Positions 16,047 to 27,379 of a stretch of DNA of 64,000 nucleotides are shown one piece after another (within the stretch, counting starts at the first letter, position 1; every line of letters begins with the position of its first letter). The notes under the pieces were generated by a model. It made no database searches. It saw only the letters and a list, made by a program, of their open reading frames with translations, and was not told the origin of the DNA. Both the position numbers and the translations under genes were made by a program. The DNA comes from a bacterium (GTDB taxonomy: Bacteria > UBA8248), in NCBI GenBank assembly GCA_965213685.1, contig CBDBZY010000018.1, positions 224,001 through 288,000 of the forward strand. The letters are read 5' to 3'.

Positions 16047-16177
16047 TTACTGCCTACTATAGATCAGAAGTACAATAATCATCACTGAAAACGTGATCGT
16101 GATTAGAAAGATTATTTTAAGCATGAACCTCTGTGAGACTATATGGAATGGTGGTGTTTCAGCACCTGTTTCTTGTC
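16047..16177 (-). CDS. Terminal exon encoding the tail-anchor helix
   Basis: cttgcag|GA CAA... gives RQETGAETPPFHIVSQRFMLKIIFLITITFSVMIIVLLIYSRQ*. The phase matches the 16270 donor (A|GTAAGT) across a 92-bp intron. Confidence 0.7.
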
Positions 16178-25100: not shown

Positions 25101-27379
25101 CACCACTCCCTCAATGCCTTGCAAGAGGCTCTCGATCACCCTCTGAAAGATTCCCGGGGCAGAGGAGATTCCGAAAGGTAGTCTTGTGTATCTGAACAGC
25201 CCTTTGTGTGTGTTGATTACCACAAAACGCTTCGATTCTTCATCTAGTGGTAGCTGCTGATACGCTTGGCTGAGATCCAACTTTGTGAAGAGCCTTCCCT
25301 TGGTCAGCTTAGCGAATAGGTCTTCCACTCTTGGAATGGGGTACCTATCGAGCTTCGAGATTGGATTTACGGTAAGGCGAAAGTCTCCACAAATGCGGAC
25401 GTTCTGCTTGTCACTTTTAAGCACAGGGACAATTGGAGCAGCCCATTCCGATACCTCCACAGGCTCCAGGGTCCCTTCTTCCTGAAGTCTTGTGAGTTCC
25501 CTGTCCACCTTGTCCCGCAGTGCATACGGAACAGACCTGGCTGGAATGAACCTTGGTGTGGCATTGGGCTCTACATGGATTCTGGCCTTGAACCCCTTCA
25601 TCGTGCCTAGTCCCTCCTGGAAGACAGCTGGGTGCCTATCCAGTACTGCTTGCAATGAATTCGAGTGGACATGGTGGATCTGCTTCCAATCCAGTCGGAT
25701 AAGGCTGAGCCAATTCCTGCCAAGCAGGCTAGGGCCAGATCCTTCTACCACAATCAAGGGCACATTCACAGCAGTCTGACCATTGTAGTCAAGGTTTACA
25801 TAGCAACATCCCACTACAGGGATAGGTTCCTGGGAGTAGGACTGAAGCCTAACCTCGCTGGTACTTAGGCTCCTCCCTGGCCACAACTCCCCAAAGGTGC
25901 TCTCAGACATCAAAGTCATAGAGGCGCCAGTGTCTACCTCCATCTTGATAAGGCAGTCATCCACCTGAACCTTGACCTCAATTGGGGGTGCATTACTCAT
26001 GCCATGCGACCTCACCTGGCATAAGGTTGACTGTCCAGAGTCAGACTCGTCTCCTTCTTGCACTCTGCACACAGCTCTTGATTGGTACTTAGACCTCTTC
26101 TGCTTGTTGCCCCTCCGCTGGCTCTTGCACGCTCTCCGCAAGTGTCCTGGCTTCCCACACTGGTGGCAGACTATGTCCTTGCTGACCCGACAGTTGGCCA
26201 CAACATGGCCTACTTTGCCACAACGATAACAGGTAGGGACGCCCTTGTTGCTCTGCGAGTTAGACACCGTGTGCACGTCCAGGTTACGAGGGTGCGACTG
26301 TGAGGCGCTTTCTTCCGGATCACGGCGTGATGCCTCGGACCTGACCTTGAGCTCCTTCACGTTCTGGATAGCCGTCTCCATGCTCTGCGACAGCTCCACC
26401 GCCTTAGCGTACGTCAGCTTCGGCTCTGCCAGAAGACGCTTCTGGATGCTTTCGTCGTTAATGCCGCACACTAGGCGATCTCGGATCATGTCTTCGAGAG
26501 AGTCGCCGAAATTGCAGTACTCCGAGAGACAGCGAAGCTCTGACACGAACGTGGCGACCGATTCGCCCGATTTCCTGAAACGGCTATGGAACTTACAGCG
26601 CTCCACGATCTCTGACGGAGTCGGCTTAAAGTGCTTCGACAGCACCTCCACAAGGTCGGCATAGGCCTTCTCTCCCGGCTTCTCCGGAGACACAAGGTTA
26701 CGCAGGAGCTTGTACGCGGCTGGGCCTATCACCGAGAGAAACACAGCTCGCTTCTTCTCCGCTTCCGTTATGCCATTCGCCGCGAAGAAATGGCCCAATC
26801 TCTCCACGTACTGTTGCCAGTCTTCCTTGCCGCTGTCGAACTCTTCTACCTTGCCGAAGGTAGCTGCCATCCCATCCTCGTCGCCAATATGTCGTGTACT
26901 CGGGTTCGTTCGTTGGCAGCTAGGAGCGCGCAAGGACTGACAACTGACTTATGACAACTCCCACTACAACAATACAACACAGCACTTATATACAGTACAA
27001 ATGCAATACAGGAAATAGACATGCATAATAGAGGAAACAAACGTGACATCACAATGAGAGATGATTACACTGCAATATACTACAGGTGGTAGGGTCTCGT
27101 TGCATAGGAAATACCCCAGAGACGTCTTCCCCACACCAGGAGCACCACTAACAGCGCATATGGTGTAGTCTGCCAAAACGTGGCCCTTTTGTAGTTGTCG
27201 CAGCAACTCCTGAGTGAATATGCCTGTTCACGTAAAAGCAAGTAGCAATAGTAACAGTAAGGGCAATCAAAAGCCAGTATGACTGCTATATAAGTGTATA
27301 AGCAGATGCGGCACTGCCTGCACTTTACATCCGCACTATAATCTTTTTTGTGGGGGGTTATTAAGGGAGGGCGAGTCAT
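16047..27379 (-). CDS. Roc-COR-ZU5-UPA-like-Death domain protein with C-terminal TM anchor (~1227 aa when reconstructed); this allele is disrupted by the LTR element
   Basis: Phase-consistent GT-AG exons: [27379-27329, uncertain], 27209-27085 + 22591-20604, 20501-19980, 19898-19795, 19711-19559, 19498-19282, 18575-18443, 17688-17522, 16362-16270, 16177-16047. Motifs: G1 GAPGVGKT, G2 RTST, G3 DCGGQ, G4 GTFKD, COR-like LHFFHAVNLMFYF..IFVDP, ZU5 GG..HIPPGAVP..SPVY..HFC, DD WDKLGLQLNVP..MITQW..ASWESLADAL, TM IIFLITITFSVMIIVLLIY. Confidence 0.8.
16689..17305 (-). mobile_element. Helentron/DINE-1-like non-autonomous element (intronic)
   Basis: Minus strand begins ttaaccctc..gcgcatgcgc..gagggtta (stem-loop), followed by (TG)n(TCTG)n. 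The far end has a tgcaact..agttgca hairpin then tttagt. Confidence 0.5.
17522..18575 (-). CDS. Death domain exons (18575-18443 and 17688-17522)
   Basis: The phase-2 junction AT|G joins ..HWDKLGLQLNVPSHKITTIM to ETHPSNSVSRLTNMITQWINSDLSASWESLADAL, a typical death-domain W/LG/W/SW pattern. Confidence 0.85.
19009..19077. repeat. (AG)n microsatellite
   Basis: Pure AG repeat. Confidence 0.99.
19980..20501 (-). CDS. ZU5-domain exon ending in an HFC motif
   Basis: VTSDGGNISWQEIGFEMHIPPGAVPEG..LASPVYLI..LSIAHFA..IYLKHFC, bounded by ttttgcag and G|GTAAGT. Confidence 0.9.
20604..22591 (-). CDS. Roc (G2-G5) and COR part of the large exon, downstream of the insertion
   Basis: Uninterrupted ORF (661 aa in the track) with FVDCGGQPQF, VIGTFKD and COR-like motifs. 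Donor AG|GTTGGT at 20603. Confidence 0.9.
22597..22791 (-). repeat. 3-prime LTR
   Basis: Identical to 26890-27084 by base-by-base reading, preceded on the minus strand by the PPT. Confidence 0.98.
22792..22804 (-). promoter_or_regulatory. Polypurine tract
   Basis: AAGGAAGGAGGAA immediately 5-prime of the 3-prime LTR on the minus strand. Confidence 0.92.
22914..26870 (-). CDS. Gag-Pol polyprotein, 1318 aa from MAATF
   Basis: Two CCHC knuckles (CYRCGKVGHVVANC, CHQCGKPGHLRRAC), protease VDTGA, RT LPFG..YLDD, RNase H CDAS..E..TDHKPL, integrase HHCC plus DDE (HVDFAGP, SDNGP, NGLAER). No stops or frameshifts. Confidence 0.97.
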   Translation of the reverse strand: MAATFGKVEEFDSGKEDWQQYVERLGHFFAANGITEAEKKRAVFLSVIGPAAYKLLRNLVSPEKPGEKAYADLVEVLSKHFKPTPSEIVERCKFHSRFRKSGESVATFVSELRCLSEYCNFGDSLEDMIRDRLVCGINDESIQKRLLAEPKLTYAKAVELSQSMETAIQNVKELKVRSEASRRDPEESASQSHPRNLDVHTVSNSQSNKGVPTCYRCGKVGHVVANCRVSKDIVCHQCGKPGHLRRACKSQRRGNKQKRSKYQSRAVCRVQEGDESDSGQSTLCQVRSHGMSNAPPIEVKVQVDDCLIKMEVDTGASMTLMSESTFGELWPGRSLSTSEVRLQSYSQEPIPVVGCCYVNLDYNGQTAVNVPLIVVEGSGPSLLGRNWLSLIRLDWKQIHHVHSNSLQAVLDRHPAVFQEGLGTMKGFKARIHVEPNATPRFIPARSVPYALRDKVDRELTRLQEEGTLEPVEVSEWAAPIVPVLKSDKQNVRICGDFRLTVNPISKLDRYPIPRVEDLFAKLTKGRLFTKLDLSQAYQQLPLDEESKRFVVINTHKGLFRYTRLPFGISSAPGIFQRVIESLLQGIEGVVVYLDDILITGSTEQKHLETLEEVLSRLDKFGLRVKSKKCEFMRSSVTYLGHRIDATGLHPLPDKVQAIKNAPAPRSVQELKSYLGMLTYYSKFLPNLSTTLHPLYHLLKKDVPWKWGTKQKKAFAASKDLLTSTKFLAHFNSNQELTLACDASDYGLGAVLAHKMPDGSEKPIGYASRTLTKSERNYSQLEKEGLSCIFGIKKFHDYVFGRAFELVTDHKPLLGLLKEDRPTSPQASAQIKRWSLFLSGYEYTLKFRNTNAHANADALSRLPLPVEPATAEQVPELVLLAEHLADSPVTADDVRTWTQRDPKLARVLQYIQQGWPCEVETDLERYSTKCLELSAYEGCILWGNRIIIPGPGREAVLQELHEGHPGITRMKSLARMYVWWPGINADIEKSVRLCTECQETQSVPPAAPLHPWKWPSRPWARLHVDFAGPFLGKTFLITIDAHSKWIEAVCTQSMSSTVVIEELRTEFAKFGLPETIVSDNGPAFVSEEFELFTKSNGIKHLKSAPYHPASNGLAERAVQIVKRGLKKVRSGSISTRLAKVLFTYRITPQGTTGVSPAELLLGRRPRTRLDLLKPHTAERVEARQLQQKAKHDATAKFRSFRVGDAVFVRNYSTGNKWLPGRISSSTGPVSFSVQLEDGRERRCHVDQLKRRAVDDTPDMSEMVLDDTIPLLPSTEPTENSGAQNAGPAQNIQQPQPIVRTYPRRQRKPREWFDPGTNQH
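26869..26886 (-). promoter_or_regulatory. Primer binding site complementary to the 3-prime 18 nt of tRNA-Ser(GCU)
   Basis: TGGCGACGAGGATGGGAT lies 3 nt after the 5-prime LTR and is the complement of the recalled tRNA-Ser end ATCCCATCCTCGTCG-CCA. Its last 2 nt are the AT of the gag ATG. Confidence 0.88.
26890..27084 (-). repeat. 5-prime LTR
   Basis: Identical to 22597-22791, with a TATA-like TATATAAG on the minus strand. Confidence 0.98.
27085..27209 (-). CDS. P-loop-containing 5-prime part of the Roc exon
   Basis: ctcag|ELLRQLQKGHVLADYTICAVSGAPGVGKTSLGYFLCNETLPP rejoins in frame to ARTSTACMEQ after removing the element and one TSD. Confidence 0.9.

Follow-up and report, generated by a model that had tools for sequence, protein, structure and literature searches.

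DAPK1 shares Roc-COR and a C-terminal death domain in one polypeptide with the gene family reported here and is not known to have a ZU5; unlike in DAPK1, no kinase, calmodulin-binding or ankyrin parts were detected in the protein encoded in the window (the whole stretch of 64,000 nucleotides that was analysed). LRRK2, LRRK1 and the prokaryotic Roco proteins of C. tepidum and M. barkeri resemble the family in their Roc-COR fold and in a G4 motif of the T-H/x-x-D type. However, identity to them is 10-14%, a disordered insert of ~70 residues lies inside the Roc of the window family, and no LRR, kinase or WD40 was detected in it. PIDD1 (LRR-ZU5-ZU5-UPA-DD) resembles the family in its ZU5, spacer, C-terminal death domain and H-F-[S/C] at the ZU5 end, whereas the family has one ZU5 instead of two, Cys for Ser, and Roc-COR instead of LRR at the N-terminus. 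In NLRP1/CARD8 (FIIND, i.e. ZU5-UPA, followed by CARD) an NTPase switch also stands ahead of ZU5 and a death-fold effector, and rat NLRP1 is among our ZU5 fold matches (E 0.027); the window family has Roc-COR in place of NACHT, Death in place of CARD, and a UPA that is only putative. The ZU5-UPA-DD supramodule of ankyrin and UNC5 (4d8o and 3g5b) has the same domain order and gave the best fold matches holding the whole cassette (E 2.7e-5 and 5.4e-5, respectively). Unlike the window family, these are adaptors of the cytoskeleton or receptors that have no NTPase, and their ZU5 domains are not known to cleave. MAVS is a tail-anchored death-fold adaptor, and its likeness is one of proposed topology only (a death fold with a putative C-terminal anchor), without sequence relation.

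The uncharacterised proteins LOC135343006 and LOC135342984 of Halichondria panicea (P0207 and P0208) and Em0003g1430a of Ephydatia muelleri (P0051) combine Death, Roc and COR-A. They are 24-26% identical to the window family, Pfam finds no ZU5 in them and, in contrast to the window family, the death domain of both Halichondria models is N-terminal. In public data the Roc-COR module family is very large (1687 cluster representatives), and relatives of the module are fused to a caspase (P0070), a subtilase (P0198) or, in other cases, ankyrin repeats. Roc/AP-GTPase-COR switches with variable effector domains have been described in bacterial conflict systems (Kaur et al. 2021, PMC8195603), with a Roc-type GTPase plus COR as here; in the passages of that paper cited here the systems are bacterial with N-terminal LRRs, and an animal ZU5-Death C-terminus is not described. 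The same passages cite DAPK1 as an animal 'AP-GTPase' apoptosis protein and term the ZU5 of PIDD1 an autopeptidase (PMC8195603). Given these switches, the sponge Death, Roc and COR proteins and the 1687 representatives, the 'undescribed system' of the preliminary description narrows to an undescribed variant of the architecture, built from modules that are already known.

The contig carries a tandem array of ~15 paralogs, to which the locus belongs. This contig is eukaryotic host DNA, with a sponge as the probable host, within an assembly labelled bacterial: its GC content is 45% as against ~65% for the bacterial contigs, a Roco-ZU5-Death gene is absent from all 41 genomes of the bacterial family, and the only named relatives are sponge proteins. 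The family architecture of Roc-COR, ZU5, spacer and Death is real. Its Roc-COR exon is under purifying selection (dN/dS of 0.21-0.39 for the window copy versus 8 paralogs), and three alternative death-domain types occur among the tandem paralogs. Overall, we explain the locus as a copy from a Roco-ZU5-Death family that has been split by a retrotransposon and is a probable null, and give this explanation a probability of about 0.78.

The gene lies on the minus strand of the window, where the following features were annotated.

27964 to 27997, minus strand: coding part of a candidate exon 1 (ATG, 11 codons and 1 base), with a phase-1 GTAAAC donor after it.
27363 to 27942, no strand assigned: high-copy interspersed repeat of 580 bp within the presumed first intron; 27362 adjoins 27943 in other paralogs.
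27085 to 27223, minus strand: 5' part of the large Roc-COR exon (Roc beta1 strand and P-loop GAPGVGKT), between the acceptor AG at 27225-27224 and the insertion site.
22597 to 27084, minus strand: LTR retrotransposon of Ty3/gypsy type, oriented like the gene, recognised by its LTRs, target duplication and Pfam domains.
20604 to 22596, minus strand: 3' part of the large exon (switch I, acidic/Pro-rich disordered insert, DCGGQ, GTFKD, COR-A and COR-B).
19980 to 20501, minus strand: ZU5 exon (Pfam PF00791), ending in ...LKHF-C-LTG.
19282 to 19898, minus strand: spacer of ~157 residues over three predicted exons (19898-19795, 19711-19559 and 19498-19282), from splice sites and phases.
17522 to 18575, minus strand: death domain split by one intron (halves at 18575-18443 and 17688-17522), from the spliced HMM score.
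16047 to 16362, minus strand: putative last two exons (16362-16270 and 16177-16050) and stop (16049-16047), from splice sites and hydropathy.

The preliminary description had proposed a gene of ten phase-compatible exons with its start codon at 27379. That ATG falls inside the 580-bp repeat insertion (27363-27942), which is missing at the equivalent place in 13 of 13 aligned paralogs, gives 53 HSPs on host contigs and has extreme word depth in reads; the proposed start was not confirmed. The frame of the candidate exon 1, compared across 13 aligned paralogs, is open in five, has TAA as its third codon in six and is absent from two. Downstream, GT/AG ends delimit the predicted exons 20501-19980, 19898-19795, 19711-19559 and 19498-19282, as well as 18575-18443, 17688-17522, 16362-16270 and 16177-16050, the last followed by the stop. 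Of the sequencing runs registered as RNA, none contains this stretch. At the sequence level the junctions 17522>16362 and 16270>16177 have canonical GT/AG ends and compatible phases as proposed, whereas the 'intron' that parts the P-loop from the remainder of Roc is an LTR retrotransposon within a single exon. Because this element splits the Roc exon and the proposed start is repeat-derived, the locus is not an intact ten-exon gene.

The element is an intact and very young Ty3/gypsy LTR retrotransposon. Its two LTRs (26890-27084 and 22597-22791) are 195 nt each, 100% identical and bounded by TG..CA, and a 5-bp target duplication, CCACC, flanks it at 27089-27085 and 22596-22592. The gag-pol region is a single open frame of 1344 aa (22914-26948) in which Pfam finds, in order, zf-CCHC (239-254), aspartyl protease (325-413), RVT_1 (528-669), RNase H (732-866) and integrase (976-1133), and a second copy on contig C16 is 99.73% identical. 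The empty site is seen in 14 other copies on the contig, where the equivalent of position 27083 directly adjoins that of 22597, and an intact paralog exon of 751 aa runs continuously across the junction. The gap 27084-22597 was considered as an intron and rejected, as it holds an intact LTR element in an exon that is unbroken in 14 paralogs. The element interrupts the Roc-coding exon at a point between the sequences for the P-loop helix and for switch I, so that the normal reading frame stops after 37 further codons in the LTR (ORF 26964-27227). A null or truncated allele is thus the most likely state of the window copy. Loss of function falls short of proof, however, since splicing between a cryptic GT (27083-27082) and an AG (22628-22627), which are in phase, could take out most of the element at the cost of 12 inserted residues.

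The Roc GTPase of the preliminary description, with motifs G1-G4, was confirmed. The P-loop GAPGVGKT at about 27140-27115, the S-T of switch I, and DCGGQ and GTFKD within the 680-aa ORF 20584-22626 align to near-invariant family columns (GxxGxGK, S52-T53, D209xxG212Q213 and G301-T302..D305). The family profile matches LRRK2 (E 1.4e-5), C. tepidum Roco and LRRK1, with the P-loop and G4 aligned to those of LRRK2. On the window protein alone, Pfam Roc scores 15.7 bits, under the cut-off of 27 that homologs P0036 and P0058 exceed, and COR-A scores 18.7-20.4 bits, under a cut-off of 35.3. The COR-like region after Roc is also borne out by the AlphaFold and Foldseek check that had been suggested: the AF2 model of Roc-COR (pLDDT 85.4, pTM 0.84) recovered the Roco fold, the top 25 of 25 Foldseek matches, with E values running from 3.4e-12 up to at most 1.2e-4, being LRRK1, LRRK2 or the prokaryotic Roco proteins of C. 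tepidum (Roco) and M. barkeri (Roco2). Pfam found neither NACHT nor NB-ARC on the window protein, and an nSTAND3 P-loop match was sub-threshold (20.8 versus 27.2 bits). As modelled, the NTPase fold is Ras-like Roc, and it does not belong to the NLR/STAND class as defined by NACHT or NB-ARC.

At the other end of the gene, Pfam Death (PF00531) matches neither half of the split death domain singly. When spliced, the halves score 44-49 bits with an HMM built from the genome's own 21 Pfam-verified death domains, in which identical sequences were counted once, and 35-42 bits against an HMM from other-contig death domains only. Over this whole range (35.3-49.4 bits) the alignment spans the junction, and the best of 200 shuffles reached 7.5 bits, in agreement with the proposed split domain. 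By tblastn the split domain matches single-exon death domains elsewhere in the genome. Among the paralogs, 12 others have a single-exon Pfam Death domain (27.7-35.7 bits), while the split exons occur in two of ~15 copies, the window copy and one other.

Beyond the death domain, the putative final exon would encode the hydrophobic segment IIFLITITFSVMIIVLLIY, then SRQ and the stop. Within the last 22 residues this segment spans 19, has a mean Kyte-Doolittle value of 2.91 and ends 3 residues before the stop. The tail exons are common only to the window copy and the copy at 448-456 kb of contig C18, the one other paralog found to retain the putative transmembrane exon in the search that had been recommended. 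They might anchor this one subtype to a membrane, a tentative suggestion to which we give somewhat less than even odds. The competing account, itself a little short of an even chance, is that the gene ends at or just past the death domain and that the last two 'exons' are chance ORFs in T-rich flanking DNA, with no membrane anchor. A scan up to 5 kb from the death-domain donor, which required a phase-1 AG acceptor, a mean hydropathy of 2.2 or more over 19 residues and a stop no more than 12 residues on, gave comparable in-phase hydrophobic tails of unrelated sequence downstream of five of six other (type-1) paralogs. The window tail is therefore no more than chance expectation: the proposed 19-residue helix and SRQ ending are present in the sequence but do not rise above the control. 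Reading through the donor at 17522 leads to a stop after 16 codons with ATTAAA 36 nt further downstream, and tail exons limited to two copies have no relatives that we found in other collections. Between the window and its sister copy, 28 nucleotide differences in the tail exons give 20 amino-acid changes, close to neutral expectation. Against an early end, the death-domain exon closes with a strong phase-1 donor (CAG|GTAAGG) and the acceptor at 16177 is strong, while type-1 paralogs retain a conserved G|GTAAGT donor past the death domain, an indication that another coding exon normally follows. In addition, 16550-15800 differs from the sister copy by 6 substitutions in 750 nt, compared with 39 in the 600 nt upstream.

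The ZU5 domain was supported by both Pfam (PF00791, 38.6 bits against a cut-off of 21) and its AF2 model (pLDDT 89.4), whose fold matches the ZU5 of ZO-1, ankyrin and UNC5b; ZO-1 ZU5 was also matched by sequence (E 0.0012). PIDD1 cleaves itself at HFS, and NLRP1/CARD8 at H-F|S or S-F|S. At the ZU5 end of the window family stands H-F-C, which we tentatively equate with this cleavage site on the basis of motif and position, not of a residue-level structural alignment. H-F-C is found in all 10 copies of the window's subfamily; across 28 homologs (44-92% identity) H and F never vary, C follows them in 27 and S in one, and the flanks are variable. Two distant paralogs have H-F-S, P0091 has T-F-S and P0116 has S-F-S. 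The family could instead be a Roco scaffold in a non-immune role (trafficking or cytoskeleton, as proposed for LRRK proteins) with a ZU5 that serves for binding and has no catalytic role, like those of ankyrin and UNC5; we consider this unlikely. The best ZU5 fold matches are indeed to the non-cleaving ZO-1, ankyrin and UNC5b (E 2e-6 to 5e-5), ahead of rat NLRP1, and Cys replaces the canonical Ser in most copies. However, H-F followed by Cys or Ser is kept in all 28 sequences while the flanks vary, and tandem expansion, swapping of death-domain types and NTPase fusions (caspase, subtilase and ankyrin) are typical of conflict or cell-death systems as these are characterised in the cited passages of PMC8195603.

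The three spacer exons that follow ZU5 were found in 10 paralogs. UPA (PF17217) had no Pfam match on the separate exons or in six frames of the contig, and a PDB sequence search with two of the three exons gave no match. The proposal of a UPA-sized spacer thus held for size (~157 residues in the UPA position), whereas the UPA identity drew no sequence support. Phase-1 compatibility is common and is therefore weak evidence for linking this spacer to the death domain. The split death domain and tail exons (18617-16047) might belong to a small gene of their own that codes for a tail-anchored death-domain adaptor, the death-domain exon of the upstream Roc-COR-ZU5 copy having been lost. The closest paralogs do cease abruptly to match at 19011, with only one copy matching beyond, and an in-frame ATG lies at ~18617 ahead of the death domain in the same ORF. 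Yet a good phase-1 donor closes the last spacer exon and calls for a partner, a well-formed acceptor stands at 18575, the ~700-nt gap before the split death domain resembles the equivalent intron in other paralogs, and the cassette is joined to the death domain in every other paralog, all of which makes two separate genes quite improbable.

Least probable of all, and highly unlikely, is that the locus itself makes an intact tail-anchored Roc-COR-ZU5-UPA-Death sensor, with the element spliced as an intron via GT 27083/AG 22627 and 12 extra residues left after the P-loop helix and ahead of switch I. In its favour, the two cryptic sites are in phase 0 with a 680-codon open frame downstream, the conserved PPxxRxST segment would survive such splicing unbroken, the tail exons are all in phase and the copy has no other accumulated stop or frameshift, but the supposed intron coincides exactly with an LTR element missing from 14 paralogs, this element is in sense orientation with its own LTR signals, the cryptic donor GTAGTA is weaker than most donors of the gene, ATG 27379 derives from a repeat insertion, and the identical LTRs leave too little time for further decay, so that the open frame is uninformative on function.

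For the family to which this retrotransposon-split copy belongs, an NLR-like analogy, as first suggested, is reasonable, with an NTPase switch, a ZU5 with a PIDD/FIIND-type H-F-[C/S] motif and a death fold. By analogy with the described proteins, its intact members are inferred to cleave themselves, to switch with GTP and to serve in cell death or immunity. In these, Roc-COR would switch between conformations depending on GTP, like its counterparts in LRRK2 and bacterial Roco, and ZU5 would cut itself at H-F|C in the manner of PIDD1 and NLRP1/CARD8. Upon activation, the freed fragment of spacer plus death domain would assemble with death-domain adaptors to give a cell-death or immune signal, and the three death-domain types may couple to different partners. 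The family is thus best described as an LRRK2-like GTPase switch joined to a PIDD/NLRP1-like cassette of ZU5 and death domain, encoded by what are probably sponge genes.

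The 7.97-Mb assembly that contains this stretch (G000) is classed as a prokaryote genome, and its contigs of ~65% GC are mixed with large contigs of 42-54% GC; the GC content of the window itself is 39-50%. Spliced genes, microsatellites and retroelements are present in the window. None of a further 41 genomes from this bacterial family (2.0-4.6 Mb each) contains the Roc-COR gene, and the only named relatives of its protein, at 24-26% identity, belong to the sponges Ephydatia muelleri and Halichondria panicea. Taking together the GC mixture, the spliced genes, the retroelements, the absence from bacterial relatives and the sponge-only named relatives, we consider the window to be eukaryotic host DNA, probably from a sponge, that was binned with a symbiont. 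A bacterial origin of the gene was rejected because of the contig GC mixture and the absence from the family genomes. As a bacterium, G000 was scored at 94% completeness and 3.7% contamination, but the low-GC contigs, which include C2, C7, C16, C18, C41, C51, C56 and C64, account for about half of its length; those examined show eukaryotic features. Thus, this 'bacterial' assembly holds megabases of host DNA.

The gene is one of about 15 tandem paralogs on contig C18, whose positions 224001-288000 make up the window, and the following features of the window are relevant to its interpretation:

27997-27964, minus strand: candidate coding start of the gene
27363-27942: 580-bp repeat
27084-22597, minus strand: element inserted in the Roc-COR exon, with direct repeats at 26890-27084 and 22597-22791 and an open frame at 22914-26948
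18575-18443 and 17688-17522, minus strand: two halves of a split death domain (DDa and DDb)
16362-16270 and 16177-16050, minus strand: putative tail exons
37658-38377, minus strand: exon with Kelch repeats
40433-45607: two LINE-like elements in opposite orientations
1347-1781 and 51697-52131, minus strand: nearly identical 144-codon ORFs

When the protein itself was compared with Pfam, both Roc (15.7 bits) and COR-A (18.7-20.4 bits) remained under their cut-offs. Family-level evidence, on the other hand, strongly supports the Roc GTPase and COR-like region named in the preliminary description. An alignment of 100 homologs has nearly invariant GxxGxGK, S-T, DxxGQ and G-T-x-x-D columns, and the family profile matches LRRK2 (E 1.4e-5), the C. 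tepidum Roco protein and LRRK1, with alignments from G4 through COR. For the intact 751-residue exon, AlphaFold gave a model with a mean pLDDT of 85.4 and a pTM of 0.84, and all 25 of its Foldseek matches with E <= 1.2e-4 come from LRRK1, LRRK2 or prokaryotic Roco proteins. On the Pfam and Foldseek results, the P-loop was judged not to be of the NACHT or STAND kind. The module family counts 974 cluster representatives at E <= 1e-10, and 1687 when the threshold is relaxed to E <= 0.001. Eight long family matches were scanned for fusions, which involved ZU5 (two, one of them below the cut-off), a caspase, ankyrin repeats and a subtilase (one each); of the rest, one had COR-A alone and two were without any Pfam domain.

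Residue positions within the module refer to L002:1393-3648, the reference sequence of the intact exon. Residues 104-173 (window ~22330-22120) form an acidic, Pro/Gln-rich disordered insert of ~70 residues inside Roc, between the switch I region and G3, with pLDDT < 50 and poor alignment across the family. At the C-terminal end of COR (...CLCDKPSPH...WVCSED..., residues ~660-701, window ~20730-20610), C663, H671, C684 and W701 are nearly invariant in the 100 homologs and may constitute a small metal-binding motif; to our knowledge, no such motif has been known in COR. More distant Roc-COR paralogs (26-30% identity) were found on contigs C16 (29-74 kb), C4 and C57 and at C18:532989-534977. A weak death-domain match follows 1-2 kb downstream of three C16 paralogs, so that further families in this genome also show the order Roc-COR to Death.

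The ZU5 domain was confirmed by several approaches: its exon passes the Pfam ZU5 model at 38.6 bits and aligns with the ZU5 of ZO-1, and its AlphaFold model (pLDDT 89.4) matches the ZU5 domains of ZO-1, ankyrin and UNC5b as well as the ankyrin-B ZU5-ZU5-UPA-DD tandem, with GAIN domains and rat NLRP1 lower in the list. The end of the domain reads ...LKHF-C-LTG.... The cleavage site is H-F|S in PIDD1 and S-F|S in NLRP1/CARD8, in both cases at the boundary from ZU5 to UPA. H-F-C occurs in all ten copies of the subfamily, H-F-S in two distant C18 paralogs, and T-F-S and S-F-S in two distant homologs. Among 28 homologs with 44-92% identity, the H and F are invariant and are followed by C 27 times and by S once. 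By analogy, such strict conservation fits an autocleavage role at a putatively equivalent site, with Cys as the presumed nucleophile. The spacer that follows in phase consists of three small exons with 34, 51 and 72 full codons and is present in ten copies. Neither a six-frame Pfam search nor PDB sequence searches detected UPA in the spacer, although these used single exons only and make a weak test.

A six-frame Pfam search of the assembly yielded 21 death domains above the cut-off, with twelve of them downstream of other C18 paralogs and none in this gene or in its sister copy at C18:448-456 kb. Nevertheless, the split death domain of the preliminary description proved real once its halves were spliced. 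Against an HMM of the 21 domains the spliced sequence scores 44-49 bits, and with an HMM restricted to the domains from other contigs it reaches 35-42 bits; the alignment spans the junction, and the best of 200 shuffles reached 7.5 bits. With tblastn, it matches single-exon death domains elsewhere in the genome. A search with the DDb exon retrieved no relatives from the genome-contig and metagenome-contig collections. As the twelve other C18 domains represent two types, the array carries three alternative death-domain types; by copy, six are of type 1, six of type 2 and two of the split type 3. The Roc-COR exon of this copy is 97% identical to one paralog group, while beyond 19011 only the sister copy matches; judging from these alignments, the copy is a mosaic.

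DDa is identical in this copy and its sister, whereas DDb has 13 differences that cause nine amino-acid changes (METHPSNSVSR vs MADHASDSVRK), with nine of the 13 packed into 28 nt (17659-17686). The cluster could be a gene-conversion patch or could reflect diversifying selection on the death-domain surface. The array extends from ~8 kb to 763 kb with a period of ~20-80 kb, every copy is on the minus strand, and the repeated unit takes in long stretches upstream of the gene (window 27.9-34 kb). The pair of 144-codon ORFs, ~50 kb apart and both without a Pfam match, fits this repeat unit. The LINE-like elements are each broken into several frames and contain reverse-transcriptase ORFs and an endonuclease-family ORF below the Pfam cut-off.

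The segment 27084-22597, previously taken as an intron between the P-loop and the remainder of Roc, is in fact a mobile element inside a coding exon. The bases flanking it are contiguous in 14 other copies on C18, and the closest intact paralog has one 751-codon open frame across the insertion site, reading ...GKTSLGHFLCNETLPPARTSTACMEQ.... The element is bounded by 195-nt direct repeats of 100% identity, each of which starts with TG and ends with CA in the minus-strand reading, and the whole element has CCACC on either flank. The repeats enclose a single 1344-codon open frame that encodes, in this order by Pfam, zinc knuckles, an aspartyl protease, a reverse transcriptase, RNase H and an integrase. 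It is a Ty3/gypsy-type LTR retrotransposon, inserted in the sense orientation relative to the gene. The 87-codon frame with GAPGVGKT enters one LTR and ends 37 codons further on, and the 680-codon downstream frame starts within the other. Two observations, the identity of the LTRs and a further full copy at 99.73% identity on contig C16, indicate that the insertion is very recent; by sequence divergence, the nearest paralogs (dS 0.03-0.04) had separated long before it.

Removal of the element by splicing was considered at the level of sites and reads. A cryptic GT (27083-27082) and AG (22628-22627) are in phase, and their use would insert 12 extra residues between the P-loop helix and switch I; this pair probably accounts for the phase-compatible exons reported earlier. 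Canonical splice sites for exact excision are missing at all nine positions permitted by the 8-nt junction ambiguity. The sequencing runs found to contain the stretch include none recorded as RNA, and in four public runs (X1, X3, X4 and X6) the introns and the transposon are covered as in DNA contigs, with no splice joints of the gene. Reads of X1, X3 and X4 include a joint skipping from 22589/22592 to 27083/27086 at a word depth of 1078-3983. An empty allele was rejected as its source, since this depth far exceeds that of the single-copy flanks (~90-440) and the joint carries a variant at 27113; it was read as paralog sequence. None of the listed read pieces from the four runs bridges an LTR-flank junction. 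The copy in the window is most likely a transposon-disrupted allele. With three death-domain types, a mosaic copy and a recent retrotransposon knock-out, the locus presents a clear case of birth-and-death evolution in an immune-like array.

The gene start also required revision. The ATG proposed at 27379 falls within the 580-bp repeat, which none of the 13 aligned paralogs has at this position; the large exon starts after a conserved acceptor (27225-27224) and has no in-frame ATG ahead of the P-loop. The repeat gives 53 HSPs on the two strands of the host contigs, with identities of 92-98%, has word depths of ~5,000 to 560,000 in public runs and resembles a SINE- or MITE-like element of very high abundance. 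A conserved upstream block contains TATA-like and E-box-like sequences and the phase-compatible candidate coding start, which is open in five of the 13 paralogs, has a stop as third codon in six and is missing in two. Of the ten ORFs considered as upstream exons (minus strand, 27.9-38.6 kb), none carries a relevant domain. The Kelch exon (239 codons; Pfam Kelch_KLHDC2_KLHL20_DRC7 at 48.7 bits, cut-off 50) is probably part of a different gene that lies upstream of the Roco gene.

The last putative exon does encode the hydrophobic segment described previously, with 19 residues of mean hydropathy 2.91 (vs 1.74 for the next-best segment of the protein) before SRQ and the stop. That this C-terminal membrane anchor is part of the protein we rate at slightly short of even odds. 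At the end of the death-domain exon there is a strong phase-1 donor, a feature shared with the type-1 death-domain exons of other paralogs, but a scan with the same criteria found comparable tail ORFs downstream of five of the six type-1 paralogs, in sequence that is unrelated and often derived from microsatellites. Similarly, the tail acceptor at 16177 is strong and the stretch from 16550 to 15800 has diverged little from the sister copy, yet the differences within the tail exons are mostly amino-acid changes. The search for paralogs that keep the exon did retrieve the sister copy, which has all tail exons open, one GC donor and no transposon, and in which CAA replaces the stop and adds six residues. 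However, this brings the total to only two copies, and the search of the genome and metagenome contig collections with the DDb exon yielded no relatives. A search for AATAAA/ATTAAA poly(A) signals was uninformative, as they are also missing after the death-domain ORF in 10 of the 12 other paralogs.

For the Roc-COR exon, dN/dS is 0.21-0.39 between the window and eight paralogs and 0.22-0.47 for other pairs. These values indicate that the family encodes working proteins, despite a stop codon in three of the 12 near-full-length copies. In the mechanism we propose, the GTP-regulated Roc-COR would act as a switch, ZU5 would cleave itself, and the released death-domain fragment would then assemble. 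The proposal draws on analogy with LRRK2/Roco, PIDD1 and NLRP1/CARD8 and on the AP-GTPase view of conflict systems. One source (PMC8195603) presents Roc-type 'AP-GTPases' as switches in such systems.

The suggestion of an undescribed system may hold for the complete architecture, insofar as no description of a Roc-COR, ZU5 and Death protein was found in the literature, but the supplementary architecture tables of PMC8195603 and PMC12909245, beyond the reach of the search, might list it, and uncharacterised Death+Roc+COR proteins already exist in public sponge proteomes. We regard the family as moderately interesting. In the broadest reading, which we hold to be tentative at a probability of roughly 0.3, sponges would carry a large undescribed class of cytosolic cell-death/immune sensors that differ from NLRs by a Roco GTPase switch in place of NACHT, upstream of a self-cleaving Cys-type ZU5-UPA and interchangeable death domains. 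The arrays would diversify by swaps of death-domain exons, and one subtype would be membrane-anchored by a C-terminal helix. Such a 'Roco-some' would parallel the PIDDosome and the NLRP1 inflammasome. If this is true, animals of early-branching lineages assembled self-cleaving death-fold sensors of the NLR kind around a Roco GTPase, switches of the LRRK/DAPK type would be linked with effector release of the PIDD/NLRP1 type, and the site of ZU5 autocleavage would be available for study in a naturally occurring Cys version.
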